Positions 32,182 through 54,255 of a stretch of 64,000 bases of DNA are shown here, one piece after another. A program made the position numbers and the translations under genes. Source of the stretch: Deltaproteobacteria bacterium (lineage in GTDB: Bacteria; Myxococcota_A; Polyangia; Polyangiales; Houyiibacteriaceae); the NCBI GenBank assembly GCA_017644045.1, contig JAEPMI010000013.1, positions 327,556 through 391,555 of the forward strand. Direction: 5' to 3'. The notes under the pieces are model-generated. The model ran no database searches. It worked only from the letters and a program-made list of their open reading frames with translations, and had not been told where the DNA came from. The first letter of the stretch is position 1. Every line of letters starts with the position of its first letter.

Positions 32182-32292
32182 CCTGAGGCGAGGGCCCCGG
32201 TTCGGTGACTGCATCGGACCGGGTGCTCGCATTCTCGAGAGGGCCGAGTTTCCACGGGCGCGTCAGCGGGGTTGACCCTATGCTGGCGCCCG

Positions 32293-37412: not shown

Positions 37413-39977
37413 GTGGAGACGCCGCGCCTCTTCGGGCGGACACGGGCGCGCGCCGAGCTCGACGCAGCCATCGCCGACCCGGCCCTTCGATGGGTGAGCG
37501 TCGTCGGGCTCGGCGGCGTGGGCAAGAGCGCCCTCGTGCTCGACTGGCTCGAGCGGCATCCGTCGGCCGACCACACCCTCTGCCGGCTCGATCACACCGG
37601 CGCCGCCAGCCTCCCCCTCGCCCTCGCGTCCGCCCTCGGAGCGCGGGTCTCGGAGGCGACGCTCGAGAGCCTCGGCGTGGCGCTCGCCGATGCTCCGCCC
37701 ACCCTGCTGATCCTCGACGGCGCCGAGGTCCTGAGCGCCGACGAAATGCTCCAGCTCGGCGAGTGGTGCGCTTCTCTCGAGTCGATGCGGGTCGTCGCGA
37801 CCAGCCGCTGGCCCCTCCGTGTCGAAGGCGAGCGCGTCCTCCGCTTGGAGCCCCTCGAGCTGCCGGAAGCCGGCGACGACGCGGAACGCTCGCCCGCCGT
37901 GGCGATGCTGCTCGAGCGAATGGCCCGTCTCGGAGCGGGCGAGCCCGAGCTCGACGCGGTGGTGGACCTCGCCCGAGCCCTCGGAGGCCTCCCGCTGGGG
38001 CTCGAGCTCTGCGCTCGCACCGCGGCTCTCCTCGGGCCCGCAGAGACGCTCGCTCGGCTGGGTGACGTGGTCGCGCTCGAGGATCCGAAGCGCGAGCCAG
38101 AGCATCGCCAAGCGAGCCTGCAGCGGGTGCTCGACACCACCCTGGAAGAGAGCCCCGAGTGGGTGCGCCAGGGGCTCGGGCAGGCAACCATCTTCCAGAC
38201 GGCGTTCTCGCTCGCGGCGGCGGAGGCCGTCATCACGCTTCCCAGAGGGCGCTCGGTGCTCGCGTTGGTGCACGAGCTCGTGGACCGCGCGCTGGTGCAG
38301 GTCGACCGGGGTGCGGAGCGACGCTTTCGCCTCCACGACCTGGTCCGCCACGCCGCCTCCGCTCGCCGCGCGGACGACGTCGCGCTCCGGGAGCGGCACG
38401 AGGCGCACTTTCTCGAGGGCTTCGCCGACGAGTGTCTCCAGAACGCCTTCACCGACGTCTCGAGTCGCCGTCGGCTGCTGCTCGAGTCGCCCGACCTCCT
38501 GCACGCCTGCGCTCGGGTTCGCGAGGACCCCGACGCCGAACCGAAGCGGCTCGCTCGCGTGGCCATCGTCGCCAGGGCCTTCTTCTTGGCCGGCATTCGT
38601 CTCCCGGCGCTCGACGCGCTGGTCGAGCGCGTGACCCGGACCGAGACCCTACACGCGCTCGGTCCGGCGGGCGCGTCGTCGATCGCCGAGCTCGTCGGCA
38701 CCCTTCGCAGCTGGGAGCGCTCGGACGACGCTGGCGAGTGGCTCGAGCGCGCGGTGCGCCTGGCCGAGGACAGCGGCAAGCCGGAGCTCCGCTTCGGTGC
38801 GCTGATGAGGCAAGCCCATGCGCATCTCGCGCTCGGCCAAGCGAGAGAAGCGAAGAGCACGGTCGACGCGATGCGCGCGCTCCTCTCGGAGCTCTCCGAG
38901 CCGAAGTGGAGGGCGTGGGTGCTCGCGCTCGGAGCGCTCGCGGAGCGCCACCGGGCCGAGGTGCCATGGCTCGAAGCGCAGCTTCGTGAGGCCAGCCGCA
39001 TCCTCGGTGAGGTCGACGCGCCGGATGCGTCCCTCGCCTGGACTCGCGTGCGGCTCGCCGACCTCCTGGTCGACGCCGGCCGCGCCGACGACGGACTGAG
39101 AGAGGCGCGAGGGGCGGCCCGACTCAGCGCCGCCAACCCTCAGCTCCGGTCCTACGTTCGCCTCATCGAGGCTCTCGCCCACACCGGCCGGTCGGACTTC
39201 GAGCGGGCAGAGGCCGAAGTCCTCGCGATCGAAGAGAGCGCGGCCATCGACGAGAGCATCCGCCGCCTCTCCATCGTCGCCCGCGCGAGTCTGCGGCTCC
39301 GTCGTGAGCAGTGGGCGCAGGCGATGGTGGACTTCGAGACGCTGAACCAGCTTCCGGTCGAGAGCGGTCACGAGGCGTCGGCCGCGGTGGTGCACCTGGG
39401 CCTCGCGGTCGCGGCCGCACACGCCGGCGCTCCGGAACGCGCGCGGCAGGCCTTGGCGGAGGCCGGATCCCGGATCGCCGACCGCGACCCGCGCGGGCCT
39501 TTCGCCGGAGTGCTCGACCGTGGCCATGCGCTCCTCGACGGTCGCGCGCTGGCGGCGAGGCCCGCCATTCGCCCGACGCTCCTTCCAACCGTGGCGGCCG
39601 TGCTCCGTCTCGTCGCCGAGGCGGCGGAGGCGGGCGCGGGTCCCTCGATGCAGGTGGGGCCCGAAGCTCTCTGGGTTCGCGTCGCGAGCGCGGATGCCCT
39701 CTCGATGACTCGGCGACCGGTGCTCCAGCGGCTCCTCTGGGCGTTGGTGGAGCTCCACCGAGCCGGCGCGGCGACCCTCACGACCGACGAGCTCTTCGAG
39801 CACGGCTGGCCCGGCGAGACCATCGACGTGGGCGCGGCCCGGAACCGAGCCCGGGTGGCGCTGACCCGCCTCCGGAAGCTCGGACTGGACGCGGTGATCG
39901 AGCGCCTGCCCGAGGGGGTCCGCATCCGCCCGGCCGTGCGCGTGGAGCTGGTCGACGCCCATCGCCCCCCGAATTAG
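37413..39977 (+). CDS. STAND-type P-loop NTPase with TPR-like helical repeats and C-terminal OmpR/PhoB-type winged-helix domain
   Basis: GTG immediately follows the TAA of the upstream gene. Walker A GLGGVGKSAL and Walker B LLILDGAE are present, followed by a long Ala/Leu/Arg helical region. The C-terminus TTDELFEHGWPGETIDVGAARNRARVALTRLRKLGL...RLPEGVRIRP resembles trans_reg_C. Confidence 0.7.
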   Translation: METPRLFGRTRARAELDAAIADPALRWVSVVGLGGVGKSALVLDWLERHPSADHTLCRLDHTGAASLPLALASALGARVSEATLESLGVALADAPPTLLILDGAEVLSADEMLQLGEWCASLESMRVVATSRWPLRVEGERVLRLEPLELPEAGDDAERSPAVAMLLERMARLGAGEPELDAVVDLARALGGLPLGLELCARTAALLGPAETLARLGDVVALEDPKREPEHRQASLQRVLDTTLEESPEWVRQGLGQATIFQTAFSLAAAEAVITLPRGRSVLALVHELVDRALVQVDRGAERRFRLHDLVRHAASARRADDVALRERHEAHFLEGFADECLQNAFTDVSSRRRLLLESPDLLHACARVREDPDAEPKRLARVAIVARAFFLAGIRLPALDALVERVTRTETLHALGPAGASSIAELVGTLRSWERSDDAGEWLERAVRLAEDSGKPELRFGALMRQAHAHLALGQAREAKSTVDAMRALLSELSEPKWRAWVLALGALAERHRAEVPWLEAQLREASRILGEVDAPDASLAWTRVRLADLLVDAGRADDGLREARGAARLSAANPQLRSYVRLIEALAHTGRSDFERAEAEVLAIEESAAIDESIRRLSIVARASLRLRREQWAQAMVDFETLNQLPVESGHEASAAVVHLGLAVAAAHAGAPERARQALAEAGSRIADRDPRGPFAGVLDRGHALLDGRALAARPAIRPTLLPTVAAVLRLVAEAAEAGAGPSMQVGPEALWVRVASADALSMTRRPVLQRLLWALVELHRAGAATLTTDELFEHGWPGETIDVGAARNRARVALTRLRKLGLDAVIERLPEGVRIRPAVRVELVDAHRPPN

Positions 39978-40831: not shown

Positions 40832-42358
40832 TCAGAGGAACTCGCGGGGCGGCAGACTGCGCCGCTCGCCCTCGTCTTCGTCGGGCTCCGCAGGGCGTGC
40901 CTTCTTCTCTTCCTTGGCGGCGTCCTCGACGATCTCGAGCGCGCGCGCGGCGCGGTGGTCCTTGTGGCCGAGGGCTTTGTTGTCGACGACCTGCACGGTG
41001 TGCAGCCGGTGCAGGTACTCGAGGTCGAGCTCGCCGGTGCTCGGCAGCATGAAGACGCCGTAGAGGCGCGCCACGGACCGCAGTCGCTCCACGGTGTCGA
41101 GGGGCACGTGGCACTGGGCGTGGGTCAGCACGTAGACGATGGGCGTCCGCCGCTCCCGGCGCTGCAGCCGCTGCAGCTCGCTGACGAGCATGCCGAAGAC
41201 CTTCGCGTAGTTGCGGCCGCGCTCGCCCTTGAAGCAGAGCACATAGGGCACGCTGATCCCGCCGGTGTCGCTCCGACCGGGGCGGGCGTGCTGCACCTCG
41301 TAGAGCCGCGAGTCGAAGAAGCGCAGGTACACGTCTTCGCCCTGGAGCATCAGCTTCTTGATGAGGGTCAGCGCGAGCCCGCGCGCGAAGGTGCTCCGCT
41401 GGCCACGCATCGACGCGCTCGCGTCCACCAGCAGGTAGTGCAGGCGGCGGTCTTCCTCGTGCTGCTTCTCCCGCGCGTAGTAGAAGACCTCGTTCTCCGC
41501 GTAGCGACGGTCGAAGAGCTCGGGGTCGAAGGCGAGCTCGCTGAGCACGAGCGAGTCGATCGTCCCGCGGCGCTCGACGCCGGAGTAGCCATCGACGGCG
41601 AACGACTGCTGGCCGCTGGCGCGCTTCGTCTCGAGCACGCTCGGCAGCAGGTCGAGGGAGAAGTTCACCACGTCGTTCGCTTCCGGCGACTCGAAGACGT
41701 TCAGCAGGTCGAGCATCTCGAGGGCGCCAGCCGCCGAGGCCTCGGCCCCGAACATCCCGAGCAGCTTGAGCGTGTCGAGGTCGATCTGCTCGACGGTGGT
41801 GATCAGCCGCAACCGCTCACGGGTGAGGTGCTGCAGGAAGCCGAGGTCGTCGGTCCGGTCGACGCTCTTGAAGAGCGCCGGCAGCTGCGGCTCGAGATCC
41901 CGGTAGACCTCCGGGTCCAGCGGCAGCACCGCGGGCGAGCCGGCGGCTCCGGCCTGACCTCGGTAGCGCTCGAACATCGGCCCCAGCACCTTGAGCAGGA
42001 CGACGCTGATGAGGTCGTCGCCGAGCCGCCACTGCCGCGCCTTCTCGAGCACCTCGCTGTCGGCGATCTCCTGCAGCGTCTCCGTGTAGAGCTGCAGCGC
42101 CTCGCCGGCGGGTCCGCTCAGACCGAGCTGCGCCAGGAAGGGCCGCGGCCCCACCGGGATGCTCGTGGGGTCGACGACCATCAACATGCCGAGGTCGTGC
42201 ACGGCCCAGAAGGGCACCTCGAGCGCGACCCGGTCGAGGGCGGTCCGCCACTGCGCCGCTCGGAGCGCGAGCATCGGGTTGTCGTTCCGGACGACGCTCA
42301 ACGCGAGCGAGCCGATCGCTCGCGCCGCAGGGCTGCCGCTCAGATGCTCGCCGACGGG
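40832..42358 (-). CDS. vWA-domain protein, CoxE/ViaA-like
   Basis: MIDAS motif LLVDASASMRG with downstream vWA-like strands (VYLRFFDS, PIVYVLTHA). The N-terminal ~290 aa are unassigned. The start is uncertain (GTG 42358 or ATG 42274), and the Arg-rich extension to 42592 was rejected. Confidence 0.65.
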   Translation of the reverse strand, partial: PVGEHLSGSPAARAIGSLALSVVRNDNPMLALRAAQWRTALDRVALEVPFWAVHDLGMLMVVDPTSIPVGPRPFLAQLGLSGPAGEALQLYTETLQEIADSEVLEKARQWRLGDDLISVVLLKVLGPMFERYRGQAGAAGSPAVLPLDPEVYRDLEPQLPALFKSVDRTDDLGFLQHLTRERLRLITTVEQIDLDTLKLLGMFGAEASAAGALEMLDLLNVFESPEANDVVNFSLDLLPSVLETKRASGQQSFAVDGYSGVERRGTIDSLVLSELAFDPELFDRRYAENEVFYYAREKQHEEDRRLHYLLVDASASMRGQRSTFARGLALTLIKKLMLQGEDVYLRFFDSRLYEVQHARPGRSDTGGISVPYVLCFKGERGRNYAKVFGMLVSELQRLQRRERRTPIVYVLTHAQCHVPLDTVERLRSVARLYGVFMLPSTGELDLEYLHRLHTVQVVDNKALGHKDHRAARALEIVEDAAKEEKKARPAEPDEDEGERRSLPPREFL

Positions 42359-42426
42359 CACCCCGGAGGAATACCACAGACGCCGCCCAGACCCACGAGT
42401 GGGCGACCGGCCTCGATCGTGCTCCA

Positions 42427-43041
42427 ATGCGCGTCGTGAACCGGGTCCTCCTCTCGATCGCGTGCGCCATGATCGGCTGTGGCGATCTGGGTTTCGTGGT
42501 CGCCCTCGACGGCGGACCCGAAGAGCCCGACGCGTTCGCGCCCGACGGTGGCGGTTTCGACCAGGGCCTGCGGGACATGGGTCCGCCACCATCCGACGGC
42601 GCGCCCCGAGACGCCTTTCGCCCCGATGGCTTCCGACCGGACGCCTTCCGGCCCGACGCGTTCGTGCCAGAAGACTGCACCAATCGGACCGACGACGACG
42701 GTGACGGCGACACGGACTGCTTCGACTCCGATTGCTCGGCCCACGCGGCGTGTCAGCCGGTCGCCGCGGAGGTCTGCACCAACGCCATCGACGACGACAT
42801 GGACGGCGCCACCGACTGCGACGATGGCGACTGCGCCGGTCAGACCGACTGCGGCACGATCAGCGAGTCGGTCCTCGACTGCCTGAACCTCTGCGTCTTC
42901 GAGCCGGAGCCCTTCTTCCCCGCCTGTCACCTCGATTGCCAGACCGATCTCGGGGTCCAGGGCAGCCGCGAGACCAACTGCAGCGACGGCCTCGACAACG
43001 ACGACGACGGGCAGACCGACGCCGACGACTTCGACTGCTGA
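42427..43041 (+). CDS. Asp/Cys-rich lipoprotein with three C-x-N/D-x2-D-D/N-D-x-D-G-x2-D-x2-D-x-D-C motifs
   Basis: Lipobox LLSIACAMIGCGDLG. The motifs are CTNRTDDDGDGDTDCFDSDC, CTNAIDDDMDGATDCDDGDC and CSDGLDNDDDGQTDADDFDC. Confidence 0.6.
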   Translation: MRVVNRVLLSIACAMIGCGDLGFVVALDGGPEEPDAFAPDGGGFDQGLRDMGPPPSDGAPRDAFRPDGFRPDAFRPDAFVPEDCTNRTDDDGDGDTDCFDSDCSAHAACQPVAAEVCTNAIDDDMDGATDCDDGDCAGQTDCGTISESVLDCLNLCVFEPEPFFPACHLDCQTDLGVQGSRETNCSDGLDNDDDGQTDADDFDC

Positions 43042-43063
43042 CGCACGGTGACGGCCATGTAGA

Positions 43064-43656
43064 GTGGCGGCGATGGTTCCCCGCTTCGCCCTCGCCGCAC
43101 TCGTTCTCTCCCTCGCCTGTGGCGACGACTCCGGCGGCTCGAGCTCCGAGCTCTGTGATGGCCCGGCCGACTGCGACGATGGCACCTTCTGCAACGGCTT
43201 CGAGGTCTGCATGCCCGGTGTGCCAGGCTCGGGTGAAGATGGCTGCCGGCCCTCGGCTTCGACCCGACGGGGAACCAGCTGATCCAAGCGGCCTCCGATG
43301 GGCTGGCCGTCTGGCCGATGGGAGCCACGCTCCCGACCGCCGGTTCGCGCACGGTGGGCGGCGGGTCGGGCGGAAGCACCTTCGATCTCCACGGCGGCTC
43401 GCGATTCGCGCTGGGGGGAACTCCAGTCGTCATCGGCGACGTCGTGGGTGGCGTTCCGACCCAGACGACGTCGTTCTTCGAGTCCAACGAAGAGGTCGTC
43501 TGGGTCTACGACGGGACGATGCTGGCCACGCTGGCGAACGCGCCCCAGGCGTACGCGGTCTCGGCGGACGGATCGACCGCGATGCGACTGCGGACCAACT
43601 TCGCTGGAATCTCCAGGACCTACGCGACCGAGAAGTACCGCTGCGCGGAGCGGTGA
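43064..43656 (+). pseudogene. Possible frameshifted lipoprotein gene (72-aa lipobox ORF plus 112-aa ORF in the adjacent frame)
   Basis: ORF 43064-43282 (ALAALVLSLACGDDSGG, Cys-rich) stops abruptly. The next frame is open from 43237, reads protein-like sequence (FDPTGNQLIQAASDGLAVWPMGATLP...) and has high GC3 to 43656, but lacks its own signal peptide. These could equally be two separate small genes. Confidence 0.35.
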
Positions 43657-43660
43657 CGCT

Positions 43661-44050
43661 TCACTCGCGGCGGTACGGGTCCTTCATCGTCGGCGCCTGA
43701 CCGCCGTAGGGATCGAAGGGCTGTGGGGGCGGCTGATCGTACCCGTAGCCACTCGGCATCATGACCGGCGCGACCAGCTCGCGCGCCTTGGCGGAGTGAC
43801 CGCTGGTGGTCGAGCGGATGGCGGCGATCGTGTACCAGGGCGCGACCAGGAGCGGGAAGAGCAGGTTGGCCGGCAGGATGTTGATCAACGCGAGCTTGCC
43901 GAGCTCCTTCCGCATGCACGACGGGCAAGCGACTACCGTGCCGTGCTTGAAGGACGCCCCGAACCACAGGAAGAGCAGGAAGGTCGGGAGCCGGTAGGCC
44001 TTGAGGCTCTCGGTCATCTGACCGCACTTGGGGCAGGGGAGCTGGTCCAT
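43661..44050 (-). CDS. Zinc-ribbon membrane protein, unknown function
   Basis: MDQLPCPKCG...CPSCM (CxxC x2) flanks hydrophobic segments, with a Pro/Gly/Tyr-rich C-terminal tail. Confidence 0.5.
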   Translation of the reverse strand: MDQLPCPKCGQMTESLKAYRLPTFLLFLWFGASFKHGTVVACPSCMRKELGKLALINILPANLLFPLLVAPWYTIAAIRSTTSGHSAKARELVAPVMMPSGYGYDQPPPQPFDPYGGQAPTMKDPYRRE

Positions 44051-44087
44051 CGCCCCCAAGGATACGCCCACCGCCTTTCGATCTCCC

Positions 44088-45971
44088 TCAGCCGTTCAGG
44101 AGCCGGCGGATGGTCGCGATCAGCACCGCCTGAGAGACGGGCTTGCCCAGCGACTCGAAGGGCGGCTCGAGCTCCCCCGCGACGGATTCGGCGTGGTGCC
44201 CCGAGCAGAGCAAGACCGGCAACGTGGGGAATCGCTTCCGGAGCTCGCGTGCCAGCTCGACCCCCGAGATGTGGGGCATGGCCACGTCGGTGACGAGGAT
44301 GTCGATGGTCCGCCCATCGCTCATCAGCTCCATCGCCTCTGTGCCATCGGCGGCGGCGACGACCTCGAAGCCGTAGTGGCCGAGAGTGCGGCTCATGACA
44401 CGGCAGAGCAGTCGATCGTCTTCGACGAGCAGCACTCGTCCGCCCAGCTCGTTGCGTTCGGGGGGCGCCGTCGAGGGGCGGATGACCGTCGGCGGCTCCG
44501 TGGATGTCGGCAAGAGCAGGAAGAAAGTCGTCCCCAGCCCGACCTCCGAGCGCACCCGGACGCGGCCGCCCGCGTGAACCACCAGGCTCTTGACCGTCGC
44601 GAGCCCCAGCCCTCCACCGGAGCCCTCGTTCTTCGAGCTCACGAAGGGCTCGAAGATCAGCTCCAGGTGGTTGGCCGCGATCCCCACACCATCGTCTTCG
44701 ACCTCCAGCAGGAGCATCGGCTCGCCCGGCGATGGGTCGGAATCGAAGCTCGCCCGATCGCCATCCGTGGCCACCCGGACGCGAAGCGCGAGGGTGCCCC
44801 CCTCGGGCATCGCCTCGTGAGCGTTGACGATGAGGTTCACGAGGATCTGCTCGAGCTGCGAGGGATCGAGAAAGACCGACGGGAGGTTCTGCTCGATGGT
44901 GATCGTGAGATCGATCCGGGAACCGAGGATTCGGCCCAGCAGCGTCTGCAATCCCTCGAGCAGCTCGTCGATCCGGAAGGAGACCGGCGTGACCTCCTCT
45001 CGCCGTGCGAACGCGAGCAGCCGCTCGGTCATGGCCGCGCCGCGCTCCGCGGTGTCGAGGAGGGTCCGAACGTCGGACGCCGTCTCGGGGCCCACCTGAT
45101 CGGCGATCAGCTCTCCGAGTCCGATGATGGCCGCCAGGATGTTGTTGAAGTCGTGCGCGATGCCGCCGGCGAGGCGCCCGAGCGAGTCCAGCCGCTCCGC
45201 CCGGCGGAGGCGCTTCTCCGCGACCGCGAGGTCGTCTGCCATCGTGTGCTCCGCGGTGCGGTCCACCGCGAAGACGAAGAGGTGACCGCCGCGGCGGATC
45301 CCCAGGGTGCGGAAGATGCGGAGCTGTTTGGCTCCGGTGACGGGTCGAAGGGGGAGCGCATCCGCCTGCGCGCGACCCGTATCGCGAGTTTGTGTCAGGA
45401 ACCTCAGGAAATGCTGTTGGTCCCAATACAGCGATTGAGCCCGCAGACCTTTGATTTTGAACACTCCCCCATCCGTGACCTCGATCGCCCGTTGGTTGTA
45501 CTGGACGAAGGTGAAGTCTCCGTCGGGTTCGATGCGCCAGACGTAGACGGCGGTCTCTCCTTCGGCCAGCCAGGCCGAAGCCACGGAGTCTTGGAGCGAG
45601 TCGAGTGAGGGCGCGGGCGGGAGCTCGTCGGCGGGGGCGTGGGCGAACACGACGAGGGCGTCGTCCCCGAGCGGGATCACCCGATAATGGGTGAGCACCG
45701 ACACGCCCCGGGTACGCATGGGGACCTCGAGCGAGAGCGAGCGAACCTCCCCGGTGCGCGCGGCTTCGCGAACCAGCCGCGGAATCGCCTCGACATCCGG
45801 GAAGATCGCTTCGAGGGTCAGGCCGACGAACGTGTCGGAGGCGACGCCGGCCACCTCGCGTGCCGCGTCGTTCATGTCCGCCACGACGAAGCCGCTCTCC
45901 TCCGCCCGGACGAGGACGCCCGCCATGGGGGCGTCCTTCCATGCGCGTTCCCACCGCACCGTCTCAGCCAA
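44088..45971 (-). CDS. Hybrid sensor histidine kinase / response regulator (PAS-PAS-HisKA-HATPase-REC)
   Basis: H-box LAGGIAHDFNNILAAIIG, N-box NLIVNAHEAM, G1 DDGVGI and G2 GGGLGLA. Receiver VLLVEDDRLL...ILVTDVAMPHISG. No TM segment is present. Confidence 0.85.
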   Translation of the reverse strand: MAETVRWERAWKDAPMAGVLVRAEESGFVVADMNDAAREVAGVASDTFVGLTLEAIFPDVEAIPRLVREAARTGEVRSLSLEVPMRTRGVSVLTHYRVIPLGDDALVVFAHAPADELPPAPSLDSLQDSVASAWLAEGETAVYVWRIEPDGDFTFVQYNQRAIEVTDGGVFKIKGLRAQSLYWDQQHFLRFLTQTRDTGRAQADALPLRPVTGAKQLRIFRTLGIRRGGHLFVFAVDRTAEHTMADDLAVAEKRLRRAERLDSLGRLAGGIAHDFNNILAAIIGLGELIADQVGPETASDVRTLLDTAERGAAMTERLLAFARREEVTPVSFRIDELLEGLQTLLGRILGSRIDLTITIEQNLPSVFLDPSQLEQILVNLIVNAHEAMPEGGTLALRVRVATDGDRASFDSDPSPGEPMLLLEVEDDGVGIAANHLELIFEPFVSSKNEGSGGGLGLATVKSLVVHAGGRVRVRSEVGLGTTFFLLLPTSTEPPTVIRPSTAPPERNELGGRVLLVEDDRLLCRVMSRTLGHYGFEVVAAADGTEAMELMSDGRTIDILVTDVAMPHISGVELARELRKRFPTLPVLLCSGHHAESVAGELEPPFESLGKPVSQAVLIATIRRLLNG

Positions 45972-46010
45972 ACCGACATTCGTCGCCCGGTCAACCGGCG
46001 CCGAAGGGGG

Positions 46011-47753
46011 TCACTCGGATGGGGGAGAGGAATCTTCTATCGGCCGAGTACCCGGTGGCCAAATGGTGAACACGGCTCGTACCCGTCGTATGTCGGTGGT
46101 CGCGTTGGCCTCGCTCTCCGCGTTCACCGTGATCCCTTCTCGGCTCAGCGCGGCGCTCAGCTCGGCGCGAGCGCGAGCCCGCGACGCGGGCGGACCGATG
46201 ACGTCCACGGTGACCCAGCCCGCCTGCCGAAGCTGCGCGAGCGGAAGCGAACGAAGGTCGATGCGGAAGTCCACGACGCCGCCGAGGAGGACATAGCCGA
46301 TGGTCACTTCGGCCGTGACCGGCTCCACCTCGATCTCGACCTGCGGGATCTGCACCTCGATGGATCCACCGACCTGCCCGCTGGGTGGAGCGACGGGTTC
46401 CGGTTCCGGTTCCGGCGGCGGCGGTGGGGCCGGCGGGACGGGGTTGTGACCGCTCCCGGTGGTCGCGGGGCAGGCCGCGCGGATCTCCGTTTGGCGACGG
46501 TAGGCTTGGCGTCGGTCGTAGTTGCCGATCATCCACTCGAGGGTCAGCGCGATCTGGTGCTCGCCGCGATACTCACCGGCGACGCCACCGCGGTAGCGGA
46601 GGTAGAGCAACCCACCGCCGTTGCAGCTGGTGTAGACGAGGCCCAGCCGGGCATCCACGAACGCGCCCGGGCCGACCTCGCGTGGCGTGTCGCCGTAGAT
46701 GCCGATCGCGCCACCGCCGACCTCCAGGTAGAGCGGAAGCCGCGCGAGGTAGAGGCGTAGGCCGAGCGAGCCCGTGACGAAGCGCGAGAAGGGCGCACGC
46801 ATGTCACCGCGCGCGTCGCTGGTGTTGAACGCACCGAGCTCGGCGCGGATCCGCGGCTCGACCAGTGGATGGAGGTTCAGGCCGAGCCCCATCTCGACGG
46901 CCATGCTCGTCTTCAGCTCGGGCTGCCAGGCCATCACCAGACCCATGGCGAAGCGGAAGGGACCGTTGATGCGGGGCTCGTGGAAGTTGCGCGGTGCGTG
47001 CAGTCGGTTGGCGAAACCGAAGCCCAAGGTCAGCAGCACCGAGCGGCTCTCGCTCCCGTCCGCGAGGCCCTGCAGGTATCGGAGGCCCAGCTCGAGATCG
47101 AAGGCCATGTCGCCGCCCGTGAGGGTGCCCATGCTCAACGTGAGACCCGCCCCCACCACCGGATGGCTGGCGAGGCGATCGGTGAGTGAGATCCCGTAGC
47201 CGCCGTGGAGCTGGAAGCCGATGGAGCGCCGGTCGGCGTCGCTCAGGTAGTGGCGAAAGCGTAGCTGCGCGCTGAAGGTGTGCAGGCGGAGGTTCGGGTA
47301 GACCTGGTCGACCACGCCATCGCCGTCGGTGTCGTGGGCGGTTCCGCGGGTCCGGGTGGCGAGCCACTCGGCGCCGATGCCGAACCAGCGGGTCGGCCAG
47401 AGCGAGAGGTCGAAACCGCCGCCCACGTGTCGGTCGACGTTGTCCGCCGGGTCCTCACCCACGCCGAGGTGCAGGTGGAAGTGGTAGTCGACCTCGAGGC
47501 CGGCGTTCCGGAAGGGGGGATGGCAGGTGTAGCGCTCACCGCTTCCGCGCGCCGGGATCAGCTGGCCCGGCTCGCAGGGCGGGAGCCCACGAAAGGTGGG
47601 AGCCCCCCGCGGCCAGTCCCAGGTCGCCGGGACATGGGTGACTTCCTCACCCTCATCCTCACGCTCGCCCTCGCCCTGATCGATCTGCGCGGACGCCAAC
47701 GAGGGCACCGCGAGCACGGCGAAGAGCAAGAAGAAGCGAGCCACGGCACGCAC
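46011..47753 (-). CDS. Secreted protein with beta-barrel-like body, Pro-rich linker and degenerate OmpA_C-like tail (OmpA-like architecture, inferred)
   Basis: Signal peptide MRAVARFFLLFAVLAVPSLASAQ. Alternating hydrophobic pattern over about 400 aa, then PVPPAPPPPPEPEPEPVAPP. The tail VDFRIDLRSLPLAQL...RARAELSAALSREGI...IRRVRAVF loosely resembles OmpA_C. Confidence 0.6.
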   Translation of the reverse strand: MRAVARFFLLFAVLAVPSLASAQIDQGEGEREDEGEEVTHVPATWDWPRGAPTFRGLPPCEPGQLIPARGSGERYTCHPPFRNAGLEVDYHFHLHLGVGEDPADNVDRHVGGGFDLSLWPTRWFGIGAEWLATRTRGTAHDTDGDGVVDQVYPNLRLHTFSAQLRFRHYLSDADRRSIGFQLHGGYGISLTDRLASHPVVGAGLTLSMGTLTGGDMAFDLELGLRYLQGLADGSESRSVLLTLGFGFANRLHAPRNFHEPRINGPFRFAMGLVMAWQPELKTSMAVEMGLGLNLHPLVEPRIRAELGAFNTSDARGDMRAPFSRFVTGSLGLRLYLARLPLYLEVGGGAIGIYGDTPREVGPGAFVDARLGLVYTSCNGGGLLYLRYRGGVAGEYRGEHQIALTLEWMIGNYDRRQAYRRQTEIRAACPATTGSGHNPVPPAPPPPPEPEPEPVAPPSGQVGGSIEVQIPQVEIEVEPVTAEVTIGYVLLGGVVDFRIDLRSLPLAQLRQAGWVTVDVIGPPASRARARAELSAALSREGITVNAESEANATTDIRRVRAVFTIWPPGTRPIEDSSPPSE

Positions 47754-47800
47754 GGACGTTCGGACGCTGACCTAGCTTCAAAAGGGGGTGACGAAGCTCG

Positions 47801-48973
47801 CTATTGCGCGAACTTGCCGGACTGGAACACGTGGCCGAGGAGCTGCTCGACCCGGCCGATCGCCTCGCGGGCGGGCTGGGTGCCGATGGCCTGGAGGGCG
47901 GCCTTGATCTCGTTGAGCGCCTTCAGGTGGCTGAAGAGCTGGATGTCGCTCATCGGCCGATCGCTGGTGAGCAGATCGCGGATGCGGTTGATCTCCTGGA
48001 TCAGCGCGTCGAGCCCCACGTCGGCGGCGCCGAAGCGGCGGGCCTCCGGGTGCTCGCGGTACCAGGCCTCGAGCACCGGCCCGGTGATGCCCTCGAGGAT
48101 CTCCGCCTGGTCGAGGTTGTTCCACGTGTGCCGGAGGATGAAGAAGTCGCTCGGGTCCGCGGTCGGACGCCCGTCGAGGAGCGCGCTGGCCGCGAAGAGC
48201 TTGAGCATCTTGATCGCGCGGCGGTCGGAGAGCGACACGCCTTCGGAGCGGATCTGGAAGACCAGGCCCTTGTAGGCGGCGAGGAACTCCTCGGTGAACT
48301 TCATGCGGGGCGCGAAGTTCCCGTGGAGGCCGTGCAGCTCCTGGCTGGTCAGCGCCGGCTGCAGCTTGTCGTAGCTGCCGGTGAGCTTGCTGACCTCGTG
48401 GTCGATGCCCTTCAGGAGCAGATCGTGGAAGTGATAGCTGTCGAGGTTCTCGCTGCGCACGCGCAGCAGGAAGCGGTCGAAGACCGCCATCAGGTCTTCG
48501 TCGTTCGGGACCTCGTTGCTCGCGCCGAAAGCGCTGATCAGGGGCACGGTGAGCCGCTGACCGCCGACGGTGTAGATGCGCTCGTTGAGCACGCTGAGCA
48601 GCGAGTTGAGGATGGCGGAGTTCGCCTTGAAGATCTCGTCGAGGAAGACGATCTCCGACTCCGGGAGCATCCCCTCGGTGCGGCGCCTGTACTCGCCGGT
48701 CCGGAACGCCTGGATGTCGATCGGGCCGAAGATCTCGTTCGGCTCGGTGAAGCGGGTCAGCAGGTACTCGAAGTAGTTCGCCTGGATCAGCTTCGAGAAG
48801 AGGCGCACGAGCGCGCTCTTCGCCGTACCGGGCGGACCGATGAGGACCATGTGCTCGCCGGCGAGCGCGGCGATCAGCATCAGCCGCACGACCTCCGACT
48901 TGCCGAGGAAGGTGCTCTCGAGCTGTCGAGCGACGTGCTGCAGCTTGCGGGCGATTTGCGCGTCCTGGCTCAC
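47801..48973 (-). CDS. RavA-like (MoxR-class) AAA+ ATPase
   Basis: GKSEVVRLMLIAALAGEHMVLIGPPGTAKSALV (Walker A), YLLTRFTEPNEIFGP, SEIVFLDEIFKANSAILNSLLSVLNER (Walker B/sensor) and DRFLLR, SDRRAIKMLKL. It is collinear with the E. coli RavA AAA+ module as I recall it. GTG start. Confidence 0.85.
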   Translation of the reverse strand: MSQDAQIARKLQHVARQLESTFLGKSEVVRLMLIAALAGEHMVLIGPPGTAKSALVRLFSKLIQANYFEYLLTRFTEPNEIFGPIDIQAFRTGEYRRRTEGMLPESEIVFLDEIFKANSAILNSLLSVLNERIYTVGGQRLTVPLISAFGASNEVPNDEDLMAVFDRFLLRVRSENLDSYHFHDLLLKGIDHEVSKLTGSYDKLQPALTSQELHGLHGNFAPRMKFTEEFLAAYKGLVFQIRSEGVSLSDRRAIKMLKLFAASALLDGRPTADPSDFFILRHTWNNLDQAEILEGITGPVLEAWYREHPEARRFGAADVGLDALIQEINRIRDLLTSDRPMSDIQLFSHLKALNEIKAALQAIGTQPAREAIGRVEQLLGHVFQSGKFAQ

Positions 48974-49019
48974 GAGGCGCCTTTCGTATCACTCTGGTCG
49001 GTGGATGAATAGGGGGCGC

Positions 49020-50141
49020 TCATGCGCTCTCCTTCAGGGGCTGGGCTCGCTCGAGCAACGAGAGGGCCATTTCCACGGCGTCGTCGCCGGCCTGTTGCTG
49101 GAGCTTCGCTGCCCGTTCGCGGAGCTCCGCGGCGTCGTTCGGGTTCACCGCGATGAGCCCTCGGACGGGTCCGCGGACCTGGAAGAGCGCTGGCAGCACC
49201 GCCGCGAAGAGCTCCTCGTCGCCGACCGCGGGCTCGCTCCGCGGCCGATGGCCGGCGCGCTCGTCGAAGACCTCGAGGATCTGCATCTCGGCGATCAGCG
49301 CGAGCGCGACGAAGAGATGCTGCGGCGAGGGATCCTCGGCGGACAGCACGCGGAGCGCGTGGCCGAAGGGCTGGGCCACGTGGCCGGTGCCGCGCTTCAC
49401 GAGCTCCTGGACGATGCCGGCCCGGAGGACGTCGTCGCTGAGCACCGCCAGCGACGCCTGGCCGAAGCGGAGCTCGGGCGACAGGTCGTGCCGGAGGATC
49501 TGAGTGATCGGGGAGCGCGCGACCAGGGCCTTGAGCGGGGTCTCGAGGTCGAGCTCGGGCGTGCCTTCCATCGCCAGCTCGAGCATGCCGCGCTGGGTCT
49601 TGTCCTGGCGCACGAAGCGGACCTTCGGGAGCGCGACGACGTTCCCGGGCGGCGGCCGACCGTAGAAGCGGTAGGTGTAGGCCCAGTTCTTCACCACCGT
49701 GTCCTCGCGCTCGAGCGAGAGCGCGCGGTCGAGGACCACGTGGCGACCCAGCGCCTCCGAGCGGGTCCGCGGCATCGGGATCGCCTGGATGAGCTCGAAG
49801 ACCCACTCGCGCACGGGGGCCCGTGCGCCGCGGGCGAAGGCGCGGTCGAGCTCCGGGTCGGTGAGCCAGAAGAGATCGTGGACCGCCATCAGCGTCGCGA
49901 TGAGGCCCCGCTCGGCGAGCTCGACCAGCTCCACCGGCGCCAGCTCGCTCGAGAGGCGAGCGAGCGCTTCCAGGATCGACCCTTCGACGGTCGTCTCGAC
50001 CGGGCGGGCGAGCGCGAAGTGATCCAGCGCGGCCGGCGGGAGCGCACGCGTGCACTGGGCCACGCCTCCGTTGAGCAGCGGGTCCAGGAAGTGAGTGACC
50101 AGCTCTTGGTAGAGCTCGTGGACCTTGTCCTGGTCGCTCAA
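49020..50141 (-). CDS. Hypothetical protein (373 aa), no recognisable motif
   Basis: High GC3 and balanced composition. The TTG start overlaps the stop of the upstream gene (gatTTGAgc) and lies 46 nt upstream of the ATPase. Confidence 0.6.
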   Translation of the reverse strand: MSDQDKVHELYQELVTHFLDPLLNGGVAQCTRALPPAALDHFALARPVETTVEGSILEALARLSSELAPVELVELAERGLIATLMAVHDLFWLTDPELDRAFARGARAPVREWVFELIQAIPMPRTRSEALGRHVVLDRALSLEREDTVVKNWAYTYRFYGRPPPGNVVALPKVRFVRQDKTQRGMLELAMEGTPELDLETPLKALVARSPITQILRHDLSPELRFGQASLAVLSDDVLRAGIVQELVKRGTGHVAQPFGHALRVLSAEDPSPQHLFVALALIAEMQILEVFDERAGHRPRSEPAVGDEELFAAVLPALFQVRGPVRGLIAVNPNDAAELRERAAKLQQQAGDDAVEMALSLLERAQPLKESA

Positions 50142-51676
50142 TCCTCGTCCTCACCCGACGGCAGCGCCAGGACCTCGGGGCTCGAGGCGTCCTTGAGCGG
50201 CACGCCCCAGAGCGGAAAGCGGCGCGGCGGCTCGTACTGAAGCAGCGGCAGCGGCTTTTCGGTGTCCTCGAGCGGATCGGCGATGAGCGGGACCGCGGCC
50301 ACGTCGCGGAGCACGCGACGGGAGACCGGGCCGAAGGCTCCGGCGGGGATCACTCGCGGGGCGTCGACCTCGGGATCGAAGAAGACGTAGCCGTCGCCGC
50401 GATCGCGGACGAGGTCCTGCAGCACCGCGGGCGAGACCGCGGGGACGAGCGAGAGGCCGGAGGGCACGTAGATCCGCGGCGCCACCTCCGAGTGGAAGAT
50501 GCCGAGAGGGACGCCCTCGATGCCGCTTGGGTCGAGTAGGTAGAAGCGGTCCTCGCCCACGGCGATCTTCAGCGCCGCCAACGTGTTGGGCGGGAGCGCG
50601 TAGAGCATCCGCGCGAGCCACTCGCGGTTGGCGAAGGGGACGACCGTGGCGGTCACGGCGCGCCACGGCTCGGTCGAGGGCGCGAGGCGGAGCGGCAGCG
50701 AGAGATCCAGGCTGGTCTCGACCCCGCCACCCTCGGCGACGGCGGCGGCTCCTTCGAGGTCGACTCCCGTCCGCACCAGGGAGCGGACCGGGGCGAAGGG
50801 CGGCAGCGGGTCGACGATGAGGACCTCACCGTCGCCGCGGAAGAAGTGGAGCGCCTCGTCGTTGAAGAGGCTCGAGCAGCTCTCGAGCGCGATCGGGTGG
50901 CGGTAGCCGAGCTCGACACCGAAGGAGCGGCCGAGCGGTTCGAAGACGTGAACGCCTGGCAGGCTCGCGAAGAGCCGAGTCACCCGCTCGGGGGTCTCCG
51001 AGACGTCGAAGAGATAGAGGCGCTTGGGCCGATCCTCGAAGGCGCTCGCGGGAGGCCACTCCGCCAGCGCGGCCTGCGCGGCGACCTGCCACCGGAAGAG
51101 GTAGGAGAGCATCGCACCGCCGACGCCCACCTCCGCCGTGGCCCAGAGGCGCGCGGGCAGGGGCTCGCCGCGGGTCGCGGGGACCCGATAGGGCTGGAGC
51201 TTGAAGACCAGATCGCGGAAGGCGAGATCCCGGTCGAAGCGGTACGACTGGCGGAAGGCGTCGTCGTAGAGGACCAGGTCGGCGGGCTCATCCAGGAGCT
51301 CCACCACGTCGTAGCCGAGCGGCGAACCGGAGTCGCGATACTTCACGAAGTGCCGCGAGGTGCCGGTGAAGACCAGGCCGCCCGCCAGCTTCGCGACGCC
51401 GGCCACCCGGTCCATCCGGTAGCTCGACTCGGCCTGGACGGTGAGCATGATCTCCCGCGTCCGGAGCGGGGTCTCCAGCCGCCGGAGCACCAGCGTCGGC
51501 AGCAGCTCGTCGAGCGAGCCCTCGTCGCCGTAGGCCCGGAGGAAGGCGACCAGCCGGTCGATCGACGGGAAGAGCACCAGGCCCTTCTGGCCGAGCACCA
51601 CGCCGCGAGCGTCGGGGGCGACGCCCGGAGTGCGGAAGCGGGTCTGGTGGAGCGCGGCGCGCTCGAGGTGAGCCAT
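50138..51676 (-). CDS. Hypothetical protein (512 aa), no recognisable motif
   Basis: Start taken at MAHLERAALHQ (ATG 51676). It is the first gene of the cluster and is preceded by a 366-bp non-coding region. Confidence 0.6.
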   Translation of the reverse strand: MAHLERAALHQTRFRTPGVAPDARGVVLGQKGLVLFPSIDRLVAFLRAYGDEGSLDELLPTLVLRRLETPLRTREIMLTVQAESSYRMDRVAGVAKLAGGLVFTGTSRHFVKYRDSGSPLGYDVVELLDEPADLVLYDDAFRQSYRFDRDLAFRDLVFKLQPYRVPATRGEPLPARLWATAEVGVGGAMLSYLFRWQVAAQAALAEWPPASAFEDRPKRLYLFDVSETPERVTRLFASLPGVHVFEPLGRSFGVELGYRHPIALESCSSLFNDEALHFFRGDGEVLIVDPLPPFAPVRSLVRTGVDLEGAAAVAEGGGVETSLDLSLPLRLAPSTEPWRAVTATVVPFANREWLARMLYALPPNTLAALKIAVGEDRFYLLDPSGIEGVPLGIFHSEVAPRIYVPSGLSLVPAVSPAVLQDLVRDRGDGYVFFDPEVDAPRVIPAGAFGPVSRRVLRDVAAVPLIADPLEDTEKPLPLLQYEPPRRFPLWGVPLKDASSPEVLALPSGEDED

Positions 51677-52042
51677 CGGCCGGCATCCTACGCGCCCGGC
51701 CCAGGTCACGAAAGCTCAGACTCGGGGCGGTTTCGGGGCTCGGCAGGTCCAATGGGCAGATTCGGGCGAGACGCACCGCACACTTCGCCAATCCGGTCTG
51801 AGCCAGCTCTTCACCCACCTGCACGAGAGTCCGGCCCGCGGGGTCTCGTCGCGTCGAGCCATGCGTCCAGCGAGTATCGGGCGCCGGCGCGAGATGGGCG
51901 CGGTGGCTCGCACCGCAGACGACTGGGCGCCGAGGGTGTTGGGGCAGCCGGGACCCCGTGAGAGACGTGCGTAGGCTCACGATGGCCGTCGTCGCAGGTC
52001 CGGGGCGTGTGACCGATGGGGCTCCTCGCGTGTCCCATCGTC

Positions 52043-52594
52043 ATGACCAGCCCCGTGACCACTTCCGGCTCCTCGACGAAGACCAGCTCTGACCCGAAGG
52101 GCGGCTCCCCAAAGGGGGACTCGCCACTGCAGGTCGTTCAGCGCCGGCGGAAGTGGCCGCTGGTGGTGGCCGCCATCCTGACCCTCGCCGTATTCGTCGG
52201 CGGGTGGCTCTTCGACGCCCGGCTCATCACGGGGCCGAAACTCGAGGAGGCCACCACCCAGCTCGAAGCCGCGAACGCGCGGGCGGACGAGCTCGAGGGG
52301 ACCGCTGCGGAGCGGCTCCGTGAGCTCGAGACCCTCCGCGAGAGGACCGATCTCCTGGCGGCGAGAGCCGACATCGCCCGCGCGCTCGACGCGCTGGACG
52401 ACCGCAACTTCGGCATCGCCCAGCGGGCGCTCGGACGGGCCGCCCAGACACTCGAGCAAAGTCCCGCGAACGGAAGCGCGGATCTCGCGAACCAGGTCGG
52501 GGAGGTAGACGTGCGGCCGGTGGAGGATCTCAGCGCGATCCGTGAGCAGGTCAAGGGCCTCGGTCAGGCCTTGGACGACTTGCTGGGCTCCTGA
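52043..52594 (+). CDS. Single-pass membrane protein with coiled-coil ectodomain
   Basis: Ser/Thr/Lys-rich N-terminus, TM WPLVVAAILTLAVFVGGWLF, then a helical Ala/Glu/Arg/Leu region. High GC3. The start may instead be 52016. Confidence 0.5.
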   Translation: MTSPVTTSGSSTKTSSDPKGGSPKGDSPLQVVQRRRKWPLVVAAILTLAVFVGGWLFDARLITGPKLEEATTQLEAANARADELEGTAAERLRELETLRERTDLLAARADIARALDALDDRNFGIAQRALGRAAQTLEQSPANGSADLANQVGEVDVRPVEDLSAIREQVKGLGQALDDLLGS

Positions 52595-53409
52595 GACTCT
52601 CGCACGATCAGCGGCTGCTCGACCAGCAGCGTGCAGGGGATCGAGCGGGTCGTCGTGGCATCGATCCTGAGGATCGCCGCGGTGGCGGAGTAGCCGACGA
52701 TCCGCCCGACGAGCCCGTCGTGCTCGAGCTCCGAGCCGACGGGAAAGAGGCGGTCGCAGTACCGCCGAGCCACGAGATTCGCAAAAGTCGGACGGCACGC
52801 GAGCGCGAACGCGAGCGCCAGGGCCGCCACCACACCACCAACGACCACCACCATCAACGACCCCACGAGCTCGGTGTCGATGCCTGCCTGTTCGGCGGCC
52901 ATGGTCACGGCGACGGCGGCGATCCCATAGAACGCGATCTCCCCCACGAGCTGCGGAGCGCTGAGTCCCGTCTCCCGGGTCCGTAGAACGCGACGGACAA
53001 ACTGACCGAGCCACACGCCGGCGACGATGAGGGCCAGCGCCGCGACCAACCGCGGAAGGAAGGCCATCGCCGCGGAGAGCAGCTGGGCGACCGCCTCGAA
53101 TCCCGCGAGCTCCGCTGCCGCGGAGAGCGCGACGAGAATCGTCGCGAAAAAGACGATGCGGCCGAGAAAGCGCGCGAGCCCAGACCGCGCACCCAGCGCG
53201 TAGAGCACGCGCGCGACCCCTGCCTCCTCTCCGAGAGCTTCGAGCCGACTCCGCCGGACGATCCAGCGCGTCACCGCGCTCATCACGATCGCGCCGAGCC
53301 AGCCCAGCAGGAGCACCACCACGATCGCGGCTAGGGTGGGTAAGAGGGCGAGCACACGAGCCAGAAAGGTCTCCCACGTACTCTCCAACCAGGCGCTCGT
53401 CTCAGTCAT
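52564..53409 (-). CDS. Multi-pass membrane protein with 'conserved TM helix' repeats (MscS-N-terminal-like)
   Basis: Start at MTETSAWLESTWETFLARVL. There are four or five long hydrophobic helices with similar spacing. The assignment is by resemblance only. Confidence 0.55.
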   Translation of the reverse strand: MTETSAWLESTWETFLARVLALLPTLAAIVVVLLLGWLGAIVMSAVTRWIVRRSRLEALGEEAGVARVLYALGARSGLARFLGRIVFFATILVALSAAAELAGFEAVAQLLSAAMAFLPRLVAALALIVAGVWLGQFVRRVLRTRETGLSAPQLVGEIAFYGIAAVAVTMAAEQAGIDTELVGSLMVVVVGGVVAALALAFALACRPTFANLVARRYCDRLFPVGSELEHDGLVGRIVGYSATAAILRIDATTTRSIPCTLLVEQPLIVRESQEPSKSSKA

Positions 53410-53626
53410 CGTCGGCCTCCTCATCCTCTTCCTGAGCGCGGGGGGACACCGCGTTGATGGAGTCGAGCACGAACCCCCCGAAGACGTCGACCAAGGAGGG
53501 AGTGTCCAGCGCTTCGACGCGCCGAGCGACGTTCTCGGTGAAGGTATCGCTGACCTGCACCCGCTGGGCCCGAAGCGGACCGAGCAGGTAGTGCACGCGC
53601 TCTTCGGTCTCGTCGCGCTCACTCAT
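53402..53626 (-). CDS. Small acidic protein (74 aa), possible anti-sigma or adaptor component
   Basis: The ATG overlaps the sigma-factor stop (ATGA), and its 3' end overlaps the next gene's start by 8 nt. No TM or Cys is present. It ends in EEDEEADDD. Confidence 0.45.
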   Translation of the reverse strand: MSERDETEERVHYLLGPLRAQRVQVSDTFTENVARRVEALDTPSLVDVFGGFVLDSINAVSPRAQEEDEEADDD

Positions 53627-54255
53627 CGGTCTCTCCCCGATGGTTCGACGGTCGACGCCGCCGTGTCCGTGTCGGTGCGGGCTTCATATCGTTCCACGAA
53701 GGCCTCCCGGGCGCGCTTCAAGCGCATCTTGGCCGCCGAGAGACCGACGTCGAGAGACTCGGCGATCTCCTGCAGCGAGAGCTCCTCGACGTGTCGGAGG
53801 ATGAGGATTTCACGATAGGGATACGGTAGGTCGGAGAGGACGAGCAATAGCGCCTGGTGTTCTGGGTAGGCCTCGGGAGAACCCACCGGGTTGTCGGGAG
53901 CCCACGCCGACTCGCGAAGGATCCGATGGCGGTTGGCTTCGTCCCGGCGGGCGTTGAACGCGAGCCGGGTGGCAGCGGTCCTCACGTACGCTCGGAAGTC
54001 GACCACGTCCGGCAGCGCGTCGAGCCGCTGGAAGACCCGGACGAACGCCTCCTGCGCGTAGTCTTCCGCTTGCGCCGGCGGCACAGCGAGCAGATGGGAG
54101 AGCAGGCGCACCAGCCAGCTTTGGTGTCGGGCCACCAGCGCGCCGAACGCGCGGCGGCCGGACCGCCCCCCCGCTCGTGCCACCACGAGCAGCTCTCGAT
54201 CGCTGGCGTCTTCCACGACCGCGGGACTCTCGCACGACTCCGACGGCCGACCCAC
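53623..54255 (-). CDS. ECF-type RNA polymerase sigma-70 family factor
   Basis: Region 2 has AEDYAQEAFVRVF and FRAYVRTAATRLAFNARRDE. Region 4 has REILILRHVEELSLQEIAESLDVGLSAAKMRLKRARE. Confidence 0.85.
   Translation of the reverse strand: MGRPSESCESPAVVEDASDRELLVVARAGGRSGRRAFGALVARHQSWLVRLLSHLLAVPPAQAEDYAQEAFVRVFQRLDALPDVVDFRAYVRTAATRLAFNARRDEANRHRILRESAWAPDNPVGSPEAYPEHQALLLVLSDLPYPYREILILRHVEELSLQEIAESLDVGLSAAKMRLKRAREAFVERYEARTDTDTAASTVEPSGRDR

Follow-up and report, generated by a model that had tools for sequence, protein, structure and literature searches.

MoxR-vWA couples, which include the maturation pairs CbbQ-CbbO, NorQ-NorD, CoxD-CoxE and MoxR-MoxC/L, are widespread, and the client is known for few of them. 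In the literature, ATPases of the MoxR clade other than dynein are linked to a von Willebrand factor A (vWA) co-chaperone. The described systems that stand closest to the locus analyzed here are two groups of ternary systems set out by Kaur, Burroughs, Iyer & Aravind (eLife 2020, PMC7159879), the only paper turned up by a literature search on the Pfam family names used below. The FtsH ternary systems (vWA-MoxR subsystem 3) gave rise to the Pfam families fvmX1-7 and ivWA, and the MoxR-vWA-beta-propeller ternary systems (subsystem 4) to the families bpMoxR and bpX0-6. Both were interpreted by Kaur et al. as conflict systems, the beta-propeller group among them being without conventional effectors, and both are marked by a GxxxTAKS P-loop variant peculiar to their MoxR proteins and by vWA domains that may lose one or both aspartates (PMC7159879). 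The window (the whole stretch analyzed, 64,000 nucleotides of contig JAEPMI010000013.1 in the Deltaproteobacteria bacterium assembly GCA_017644045.1, G+C ~70%, from a Sandaracinus-like myxobacterium) carries at 43661-51676 a related MoxR-type ATPase gene preceded by two genes for conserved partner proteins, and the present analysis concerns the system to which these genes belong.

The system occurs in Sandaracinaceae, Kofleriaceae and Haliangium as five genes that usually encode, in this order, two proteins here called G1 (~510 aa) and G2 (~380 aa), an ATPase of the bpMoxR family, a vWA protein with an altered metal ion-dependent adhesion site (MIDAS), and a ~600-aa HEAT-repeat protein. In the window genome and its closest relatives this operon is broken by a recent insertion of ~5.4 kb of unrelated genes. 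As judged from profile matches, the families of the system are distant relatives of the FtsH and beta-propeller ternary families. The reading preferred here, with a probability of roughly 70%, is that a conserved MoxR-vWA system of the Polyangia, five genes in extent and split in this genome, is represented at the locus by its front half and has a cellular role in ATP-driven remodelling. The genes concerned are as follows.

50138-51676, minus strand: G1, 512 aa; the reading frame extends to a GTG at 51709.
49020-50141, minus strand: G2, 373 aa, with a TTG start.
47801-48973, minus strand: ATPase, 390 aa, with GPPGTAKS and VFLDEIFKA.
46011-47753, minus strand: G4, 580 aa, with a signal-peptide-like N-terminus, a Pro/Glu linker and PPAPPPPPEPEPEP.
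44088-45971, minus strand: soluble hybrid histidine kinase, 627 aa, with PAS_4, HisKA, HATPase_c and Response_reg domains.
43661-44071, minus strand: zinc-ribbon protein, 136 aa, a CxxC...CxxC membrane protein with a GTG start.
42427-43660, plus strand: opposite-strand block between the inserted genes and the vWA gene.
40832-42361, minus strand: vWA gene, product of ~509 aa, start taken as GTG 42361 with ATG 42274 as the alternative.

One scan of GTDB species genomes returned 58 loci, all from Myxococcota, and the counts given here come from tblastn mapping (loci are cited by number). G2 lies directly 3' of G1 in all 57 assessable loci. A MoxR gene is present in 51 loci, in 49 of which it comes next and in two of which it is displaced by 4-6 kb, and it is absent despite room from three; the sequence-only reading of this DNA had proposed G1 and G2 as partners of this ATPase clade, and the synteny bears this out. 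The vWA gene adjoins MoxR in 30 loci, is displaced by 2.4-7 kb in five, and was not found in 11 that had at least 3 kb of sequence left. The HEAT gene adjoins vWA in 29 loci, and the complete five-gene run is seen in 27. Where MoxR and vWA are adjacent, the gaps between their blast hits are only ~100 nt, or near zero when a conserved N-terminal extension of the vWA protein is counted. In Sandaracinus amylolyticus (L001, CP070225) and in the metagenomic locus L002, the order is G1, G2, bpMoxR, a vWA protein of ~490-530 aa and a HEAT protein of ~600 aa, with the post-MoxR protein of both loci giving a weak ivWA match. Each assembly sampled holds a single copy of the system, the chromosomal context recurs (one upstream gene is common to many loci), and divergence of the system tracks family lines, Sandaracinaceae versus Kofleriaceae.

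The divergent branch in Kofleriaceae extends this picture. Two loci (L064 and L069) contain G1, G2, bpMoxR, a gene for a receiver-domain protein of 120-125 aa, vWA and HEAT, and the vWA protein of this branch aligns by hhalign at E=8.8e-50. The receiver-domain gene sits between MoxR and vWA (L064, 13743-14105; L069, 17908-18285), genes for an FHA protein and a Ser/Thr kinase lie divergently upstream in L062, L064 and L069, and in L069 a SpoIIE phosphatase gene is inserted between G2 and MoxR. A 559-aa gene that follows G2 in L062 was considered as a vWA gene and ruled out. Further, kinases that are 39-41% identical to the window kinase over the catalytic core are encoded near the system in L002, L003, L033 and L036. 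A signalling link of the system is possible. The kinases near the system in Sandaracinaceae hint at such a role and are taken as no more than suggestive, since myxobacteria encode very many kinases.

The sequence-only reading had found no adjacent vWA partner for the ATPase, and in its place two proteins without motifs. The conclusion that the ATPase lacks a vWA partner does not hold: 5,439 nt beyond the ATPase stop, the same strand carries a vWA-type gene (40832-42361). A tblastn search with the post-MoxR protein of S. amylolyticus matched the minus strand at 40835-42274 with 64% identity, and the conserved N-terminal extension shifts the likely start to GTG 42361. The gene is intact and 97% identical to the vWA gene of L004, an uncultured Sandaracinus sp. 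that provides the nearest public locus (98% identity in G1). Among the nearest relatives, examined as a group (L004-L011 and L013, all with a G1 identity of 74% or more), the vWA gene is non-adjacent everywhere except in L013. Because opposite-strand open reading frames (ORFs) at 42427-43660 intervene, the window vWA gene is unable to share a transcript with the ATPase.

The product of 40832-42361 is probably a vWA-fold protein, in which a ~290-aa N-terminal region precedes a vWA domain that ends ~60 residues before the C-terminus. The fold is held to be only probable because sub-threshold matches, a motif and the position of the gene carry the assignment. All 26 aligned members of the family match PF19997 (ivWA; best E=6.9e-7), and three of the 26 match VWA_2 in register. 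An hhalign comparison with one classical vWA domain aligned the MIDAS strand at low probability, and a domain-only profile aligned in register with the vWA domain of TRAP from Plasmodium (4f1j), over the segments DxSxS, GR(T)N and LTD; the same profile also gave spurious matches to designed repeat proteins. Neither ViaA nor a CoxE-type family was reported for the protein, for which the weak ivWA and VWA_2 matches were the only ones, and it matched no beta-propeller family.

Within the vWA family the D-x-S/T-x-S of the MIDAS is kept, the strand-4 aspartate has become an invariant histidine within T-H-A-x-C-H (residues 413-418 of the 509-aa protein), and nothing in the alignment to TRAP corresponds to the MIDAS threonine. 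This altered site agrees with the remark of Kaur et al. (2020) on lost aspartates. The invariant T-H-A-x-C-H takes the place of LTDG at the end of strand 4 and, speculatively, could form a different metal site together with D-x-S/T-x-S, e.g., for Zn.

The ATPase is a strong match to PF20030, bpMoxR (E=2.7e-76, 255.6 bits against a threshold of 27), with further Pfam matches to AAA_5 and AAA_lid_8. Its Walker A (GPPGTAKS) and Walker B (VFLDEIFKA) motifs are both intact, and GPPGTAKS is kept in 55 of the 55 orthologues collected. The earlier description of a RavA-like AAA+ module is upheld by the match to Escherichia coli RavA (3nbx, E=8.9e-45) over ATPase residues 7-293. The accompanying suggestion that this is not a classical RavA-ViaA pair is likewise supported, as the NCBIfam RavA model (NF010054) scores 191.7 bits against a cutoff of 681 and is covered only at positions 1-295 of 498. 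The C-terminal part of RavA consists of triple-helix and LARA domains; it gave no alignment (residues 297-498), and the structure matches stop at residue 293 of the 390 in the ATPase.

Neither G1 nor G2 of the window matches anything in Pfam (even at E<=10), NCBIfam or PADLOC. The statement that the two proteins carry no known motif is thus correct for the window proteins themselves and fails for the wider G1 family, which reaches fvmX7 and bpX2. G1 is assignable because more distant members of this family pass the Pfam thresholds for the two, a link that was obtained by scanning homologues and not the window protein. The homologues of G1 number 474, and searching 1.84 billion representative proteins with a profile yielded 498 clusters (50% identity) at E<=1e-3, nearly all of them full-length at ~500 aa. 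Among 42 aligned homologues, fvmX7 is matched by seven (best E=1.8e-6) and bpX2 by 31, and divergent members reach 25-41 bits for fvmX7 against a threshold of 24 and 27.3 bits for bpX2 against 23.6. A profile of the divergent members leads to proteins of Kofleriaceae and Haliangium, most of which have precomputed matches to fvmX7 and/or bpX2. On the strength of these matches, G1 is probably a distant member of the fvmX7/bpX2 family. A short dCache_1_like match in G1 relatives (best E=5.8e-4) was judged to be noise.

The AlphaFold2 model of G1 (predicted local distance difference test, pLDDT, of 75.6) is that of an alpha/beta multi-domain protein with tandem ferredoxin/ACT-like beta-alpha-beta modules. 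Searched against the PDB as an unsplit multi-domain model, it matched nothing at E<1e-3, and the fold search gave weak partial matches to ACT, ferredoxin-like, ABM and PII folds (best E=6.6e-3, template modelling score, TM, ~0.1). The G1 alignment has more than 100 invariant columns. Residues 1-26 (51599-51676) and 113-126 are modelled at pLDDT <50, yet contain many invariant residues, even across the divergent branch, and rank among the most conserved parts of G1: R6, L9, Q11, R13, R15, T16, P17, G18, V19, P21, D22, R24 and G25 in the first segment, and Y113, R114, D115, S118, P119, L120, G121 and D123 in the second. The N-terminal consensus reads ERAALHQTRFRTPGVxPDxRG, in which the Asp is invariant. 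Being poorly modelled yet invariant, the two segments point to partner-binding surfaces and are likely partner-binding elements.

G2 is a mostly helical orphan protein, for which a word search retrieved 52 homologues. It evolves faster than G1 (29-95% identity versus 43-98%), and its homology extends to the divergent branch, where the gene in the corresponding position matches it (96.9% by hhalign, with which tblastn agrees). Its AlphaFold2 model is confident (pLDDT 90.2, predicted TM score 0.89) and helical with a small sheet, and comparison of the model with the PDB (best E 0.31) and with the predicted viral structures of BFVD returned nothing meaningful. An assignment of G2 to fvmX1 was dropped, as it was matched by one of 46 members (E=8e-4) and by none in the divergent branch.

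Set beside the FtsH ternary systems, the system shares the GxxxTAKS P-loop of MoxR, G1 relatives that score above the fvmX7 threshold, accessory proteins found nowhere else, a divergent vWA protein with a large N-terminal region and a lost metal-binding Asp, and occurrence in deltaproteobacteria/myxobacteria. It differs in having a HEAT-repeat protein in the position of the third component, and the window G1 and vWA proteins fall below the Pfam thresholds. No FtsH-type double AAA+ protein was detected: none of the six frames of the 64-kb window or of 70 loci (within 10 kb) contains GxPGxGK[ST], and the gene tables list no such protein. Nor do the annotated neighbourhoods contain a ubiquitin-like (Ubl) conjugation set, caspase, NEFF1 or radical-SAM protein. 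The likeness to the beta-propeller ternary systems consists of the bpMoxR match, the bpX2 matches in 31 of the 42 G1 members (one relative above threshold), the lack of a conventional effector, and the presence of extra linked alpha and alpha+beta proteins. Conversely, the vWA protein of those systems has a C-terminal beta-propeller of about four blades, which the vWA protein here does not, and their third component, in which a variable N-terminus is combined with a membrane segment, TPR and a beta-propeller, has no equivalent here; the relatives have a soluble HEAT protein.

RavA-ViaA has in common with the system a homologous AAA+ module (E=8.9e-45 to both 3nbx and 6q7l) and a same-strand vWA partner, but the partner here is not ViaA-like and three extra conserved proteins (G1, G2 and HEAT) accompany it. 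Couples of the CbbQ-CbbO type share the proposed principle, an ATPase ring and a vWA adaptor that remodel a client encoded next door. They adjoin an identifiable enzyme client, whereas the conserved neighbours here have no known activity and the MIDAS is altered.

To judge by analogy with the MoxR-vWA couples that have been studied, the ATPase would form a hexameric ring and the vWA protein would act as its adaptor, capturing an extended client peptide. ATP hydrolysis would then remodel or release a complex made up of G1, G2 and the HEAT protein as scaffold. A candidate for the peptide that is captured is the N-terminal end of G1, which is invariant and seems to be unstructured. Complex formation, client and output are all inferred from this analogy. 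A cellular assembly or regulatory role, possibly controlled by phospho-signalling, would fit better than mobile defence, and is favoured because the system is single copy, recurs in the same context, diverges along family lines, is highly conserved and has no effector. A more detailed picture may be offered tentatively, and is held with well below even confidence. It would be a vertically inherited, non-defence MoxR-vWA machine of the Polyangia, with G1 and G2 as dedicated clients or adaptors and HEAT as a scaffold, a His/Cys/His site in the vWA protein replacing the MIDAS, and gating by phosphorylation, for which one branch would use a receiver domain, FHA, Ser/Thr kinase and PP2C and the other would use hybrid kinases. 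Such a machine would add a fifth class, of signalling type, to the four ternary classes of conflict system.

It should be noted that several results weigh against the split five-gene system and its remodelling role. All ivWA scores lie at 19-25 bits, under the 35-bit threshold, and cover model positions 2-60 only; the match to TRAP is weak (E=0.047), and a full-length vWA profile found nothing among PDB sequences. With the Thr and the second Asp of the MIDAS missing, peptide capture may differ or fail. There are 11 loci without vWA within 3-7.6 kb downstream of MoxR, and three (L016, L041 and L044) with G1-G2 and no MoxR within 2.7-8.9 kb downstream, so the parts may be encoded apart or may not always cooperate. 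No HEAT gene was detected in the window, nor in its closest relatives L004-L011 and L013, at a relaxed threshold. Finally, the related Pfam families were defined in presumed conflict systems, and it is from conservation that the housekeeping reading is drawn.

This last point leads to the alternative that survives best, in which the locus is a biological-conflict (anti-invader, abortive-infection-like) system, in which G1, G2 or HEAT would serve as a cryptic effector or sensor under the restraint of MoxR-vWA. That bpMoxR, ivWA, fvmX7 and bpX2 were all defined from such systems speaks for it, as do the fast evolution of G2 and the precedent of beta-propeller ternary systems that have no conventional effectors either. 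However, no effector, peptidase, nuclease, TIR or Ubl protein is found in any annotated locus, and none of the six proteins encoded in 43661-51676 matched a model of PADLOC-DB 2.0 at E<=0.1. The single copy, the recurring context, the divergence by family line and the high conservation of G1 and MoxR are also at odds with it. Around the insertion there are no tRNA genes, flanking repeats or mobile-element signals. A conflict function is considered unlikely.

The reading first proposed for this DNA treated the same-strand genes as one ATPase-driven envelope or signalling module, with G1 and G2 in place of the vWA partner and with G4, the kinase and the zinc-ribbon protein as further components. 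The arrangement that prompted it is largely real. The G2 TTG start overlaps the G1 TGA as TTGA, as described, and alignment of orthologues favours both this start and ATG 51676 for G1; GPPGTAKS, VFLDEIFKA and PPAPPPPPEPEPEP occur as claimed; and the reported gaps of 46, 47 and 39 nt were confirmed, whereas the fourth, reported as 37 nt, is 16 nt from the GTG and 37 nt only from an internal ATG. The genes number six by ORF count and not the seven claimed, and a scan for promoters and terminators gave matches no better than the chance level. Tight gaps on one strand, window G1 and G2 proteins without a family match, the same arrangement in L004 and partly in L005, and the recurrence of kinases and receiver domains near the system elsewhere are all compatible with a single module.

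The comparative evidence opposes it. Homologues of G4 were found only in the window, L004 (83%) and L005 (56%), and the zinc-ribbon gene only in the window and L004; the window, L004 and L005 are also the only loci in which the hybrid kinase gene intervenes between MoxR and vWA. As a unit the cluster is therefore not conserved, with its G4 and zinc-ribbon genes limited to the one or two closest species. Other species carry unrelated genes at the same junction, namely an unannotated 481-aa gene, a CDCA gene and reverse-strand TPR genes in L006/L067, and two small unannotated genes with a GH3 glycosidase in L009/L068. The envelope reading falls because the genes for the OmpA-like protein, the kinase and the zinc-ribbon protein belong to a lineage-specific insertion, and these three proteins are not components of the system. 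No OmpA or beta-barrel signal was recovered: the beta-barrel body and OmpA_C-like tail ascribed to G4 have no match in Pfam at E<=0.1, in NCBIfam or among PDB sequences, the sole Pfam match at E<=10 being ACT_7 (E 0.23). The signal peptide of G4 is better founded, its N-terminus MRAVARFFLLFAVLAVPSLASAQ being signal-peptide-like as judged by eye. The supposed soluble PAS-PAS hybrid kinase does have kinase and receiver domains, with one PAS domain (PAS_4) detected and no second; the zinc ribbon of the 136-aa protein is backed by sub-threshold Pfam matches only. With a vWA orthologue 5.4 kb away, the single-module reading is largely refuted by synteny and very improbable.

Least probable of all is that G1-G2-MoxR is a self-sufficient three-gene module and vWA-HEAT a separate pair that tends to adjoin it: the distant locus L063 (G1-G2-MoxR followed by convergent, unrelated genes), the 11 Sandaracinaceae-type loci that show no vWA gene within 3-7.6 kb, and the window clade, where the halves are separated with no HEAT nearby, would suit it, but most loci have all five genes adjacent, an arrangement that two deeply diverged branches have both retained with tiny MoxR-vWA gaps, the MoxR clade is associated with a vWA co-chaperone, and the displaced window gene has stayed intact and 97% identical to that of L004.

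Beyond the locus itself, the split five-gene system combines a MoxR-vWA couple with three fixed extra proteins of no assigned activity, one of which (G2) has a confidently predicted fold without a match in the PDB or BFVD. The presence of fvmX, bpX, ivWA and bpMoxR relatives without FtsH, beta-propeller or effector offers a natural test of how conflict-specific these families are. The intact operon in S. amylolyticus, which is cultivable, makes the system open to study. For the reading of genomes there is also a caution, in that a partner missing from the neighbourhood may have been shifted by a few kb through a recent insertion.

Across the loci, the junction between MoxR and vWA has been opened independently or repeatedly (L006/L067, L009/L068, L031, L040, L004 and the window), with varying cargo of 2.4-7 kb; the G1-G2 and G2-MoxR junctions have almost never been opened. 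Beyond the displaced vWA gene of L009/L068, after a reverse-strand TetR gene, lies a gene for a large WD40 beta-propeller protein (L068, 20100-21164), which could be a chance neighbour or a stand-in for the absent HEAT protein. The opposite-strand block in the window consists of two parts.

42427-43041, plus strand: 204-aa lipoprotein-like ORF, Asp/Cys-rich; its counterpart in L004 is 81% identical and also opposite to the strand of the system.
43042-43660, plus strand: coding-like stretch of ~610 nt, absent from L004.

The 204-aa ORF has three imperfect repeats of the DDDxDGxTDCxD type (direct repeats D1 and D2) and no Pfam match, and many copies of DDDxDGxTDCxD-like repeats occur in L010. 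The second stretch begins with the lipoprotein-like MVPRFALAALVLSLACGDD (by eye from the alignment) and has a coding-type signal in G+C at third codon positions (GC3), and its frame appears to change partway; it may represent a small gene that has been frameshifted or is of very recent origin.

The remaining genes of the window are unrelated to the system and include a TonB-dependent receptor, a PEGA protein, an extracytoplasmic function (ECF) sigma factor, an MscS-like protein and an AAA_16/TPR protein. The last of these (37413-39977, plus strand, 854 aa) is encoded downstream of vWA on the opposite strand and is STAND-like, with a GLGGVGKS P-loop and weak AAA_16 and TPR matches; no link between it and the MoxR-vWA system was found. 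Upstream of G1 and on its strand, the ECF sigma factor gene (53623-54255, minus) abuts an ORF at 52564-53622 (minus), whose likely product starts MTETSAW and has mechanosensitive-channel transmembrane-helix matches. The 884-aa product of 32272-34926 (plus strand) is an unusual fusion that joins an N-terminal TonB_C domain, CarboxypepD_reg, Plug and a TonB-dependent receptor barrel in one chain.

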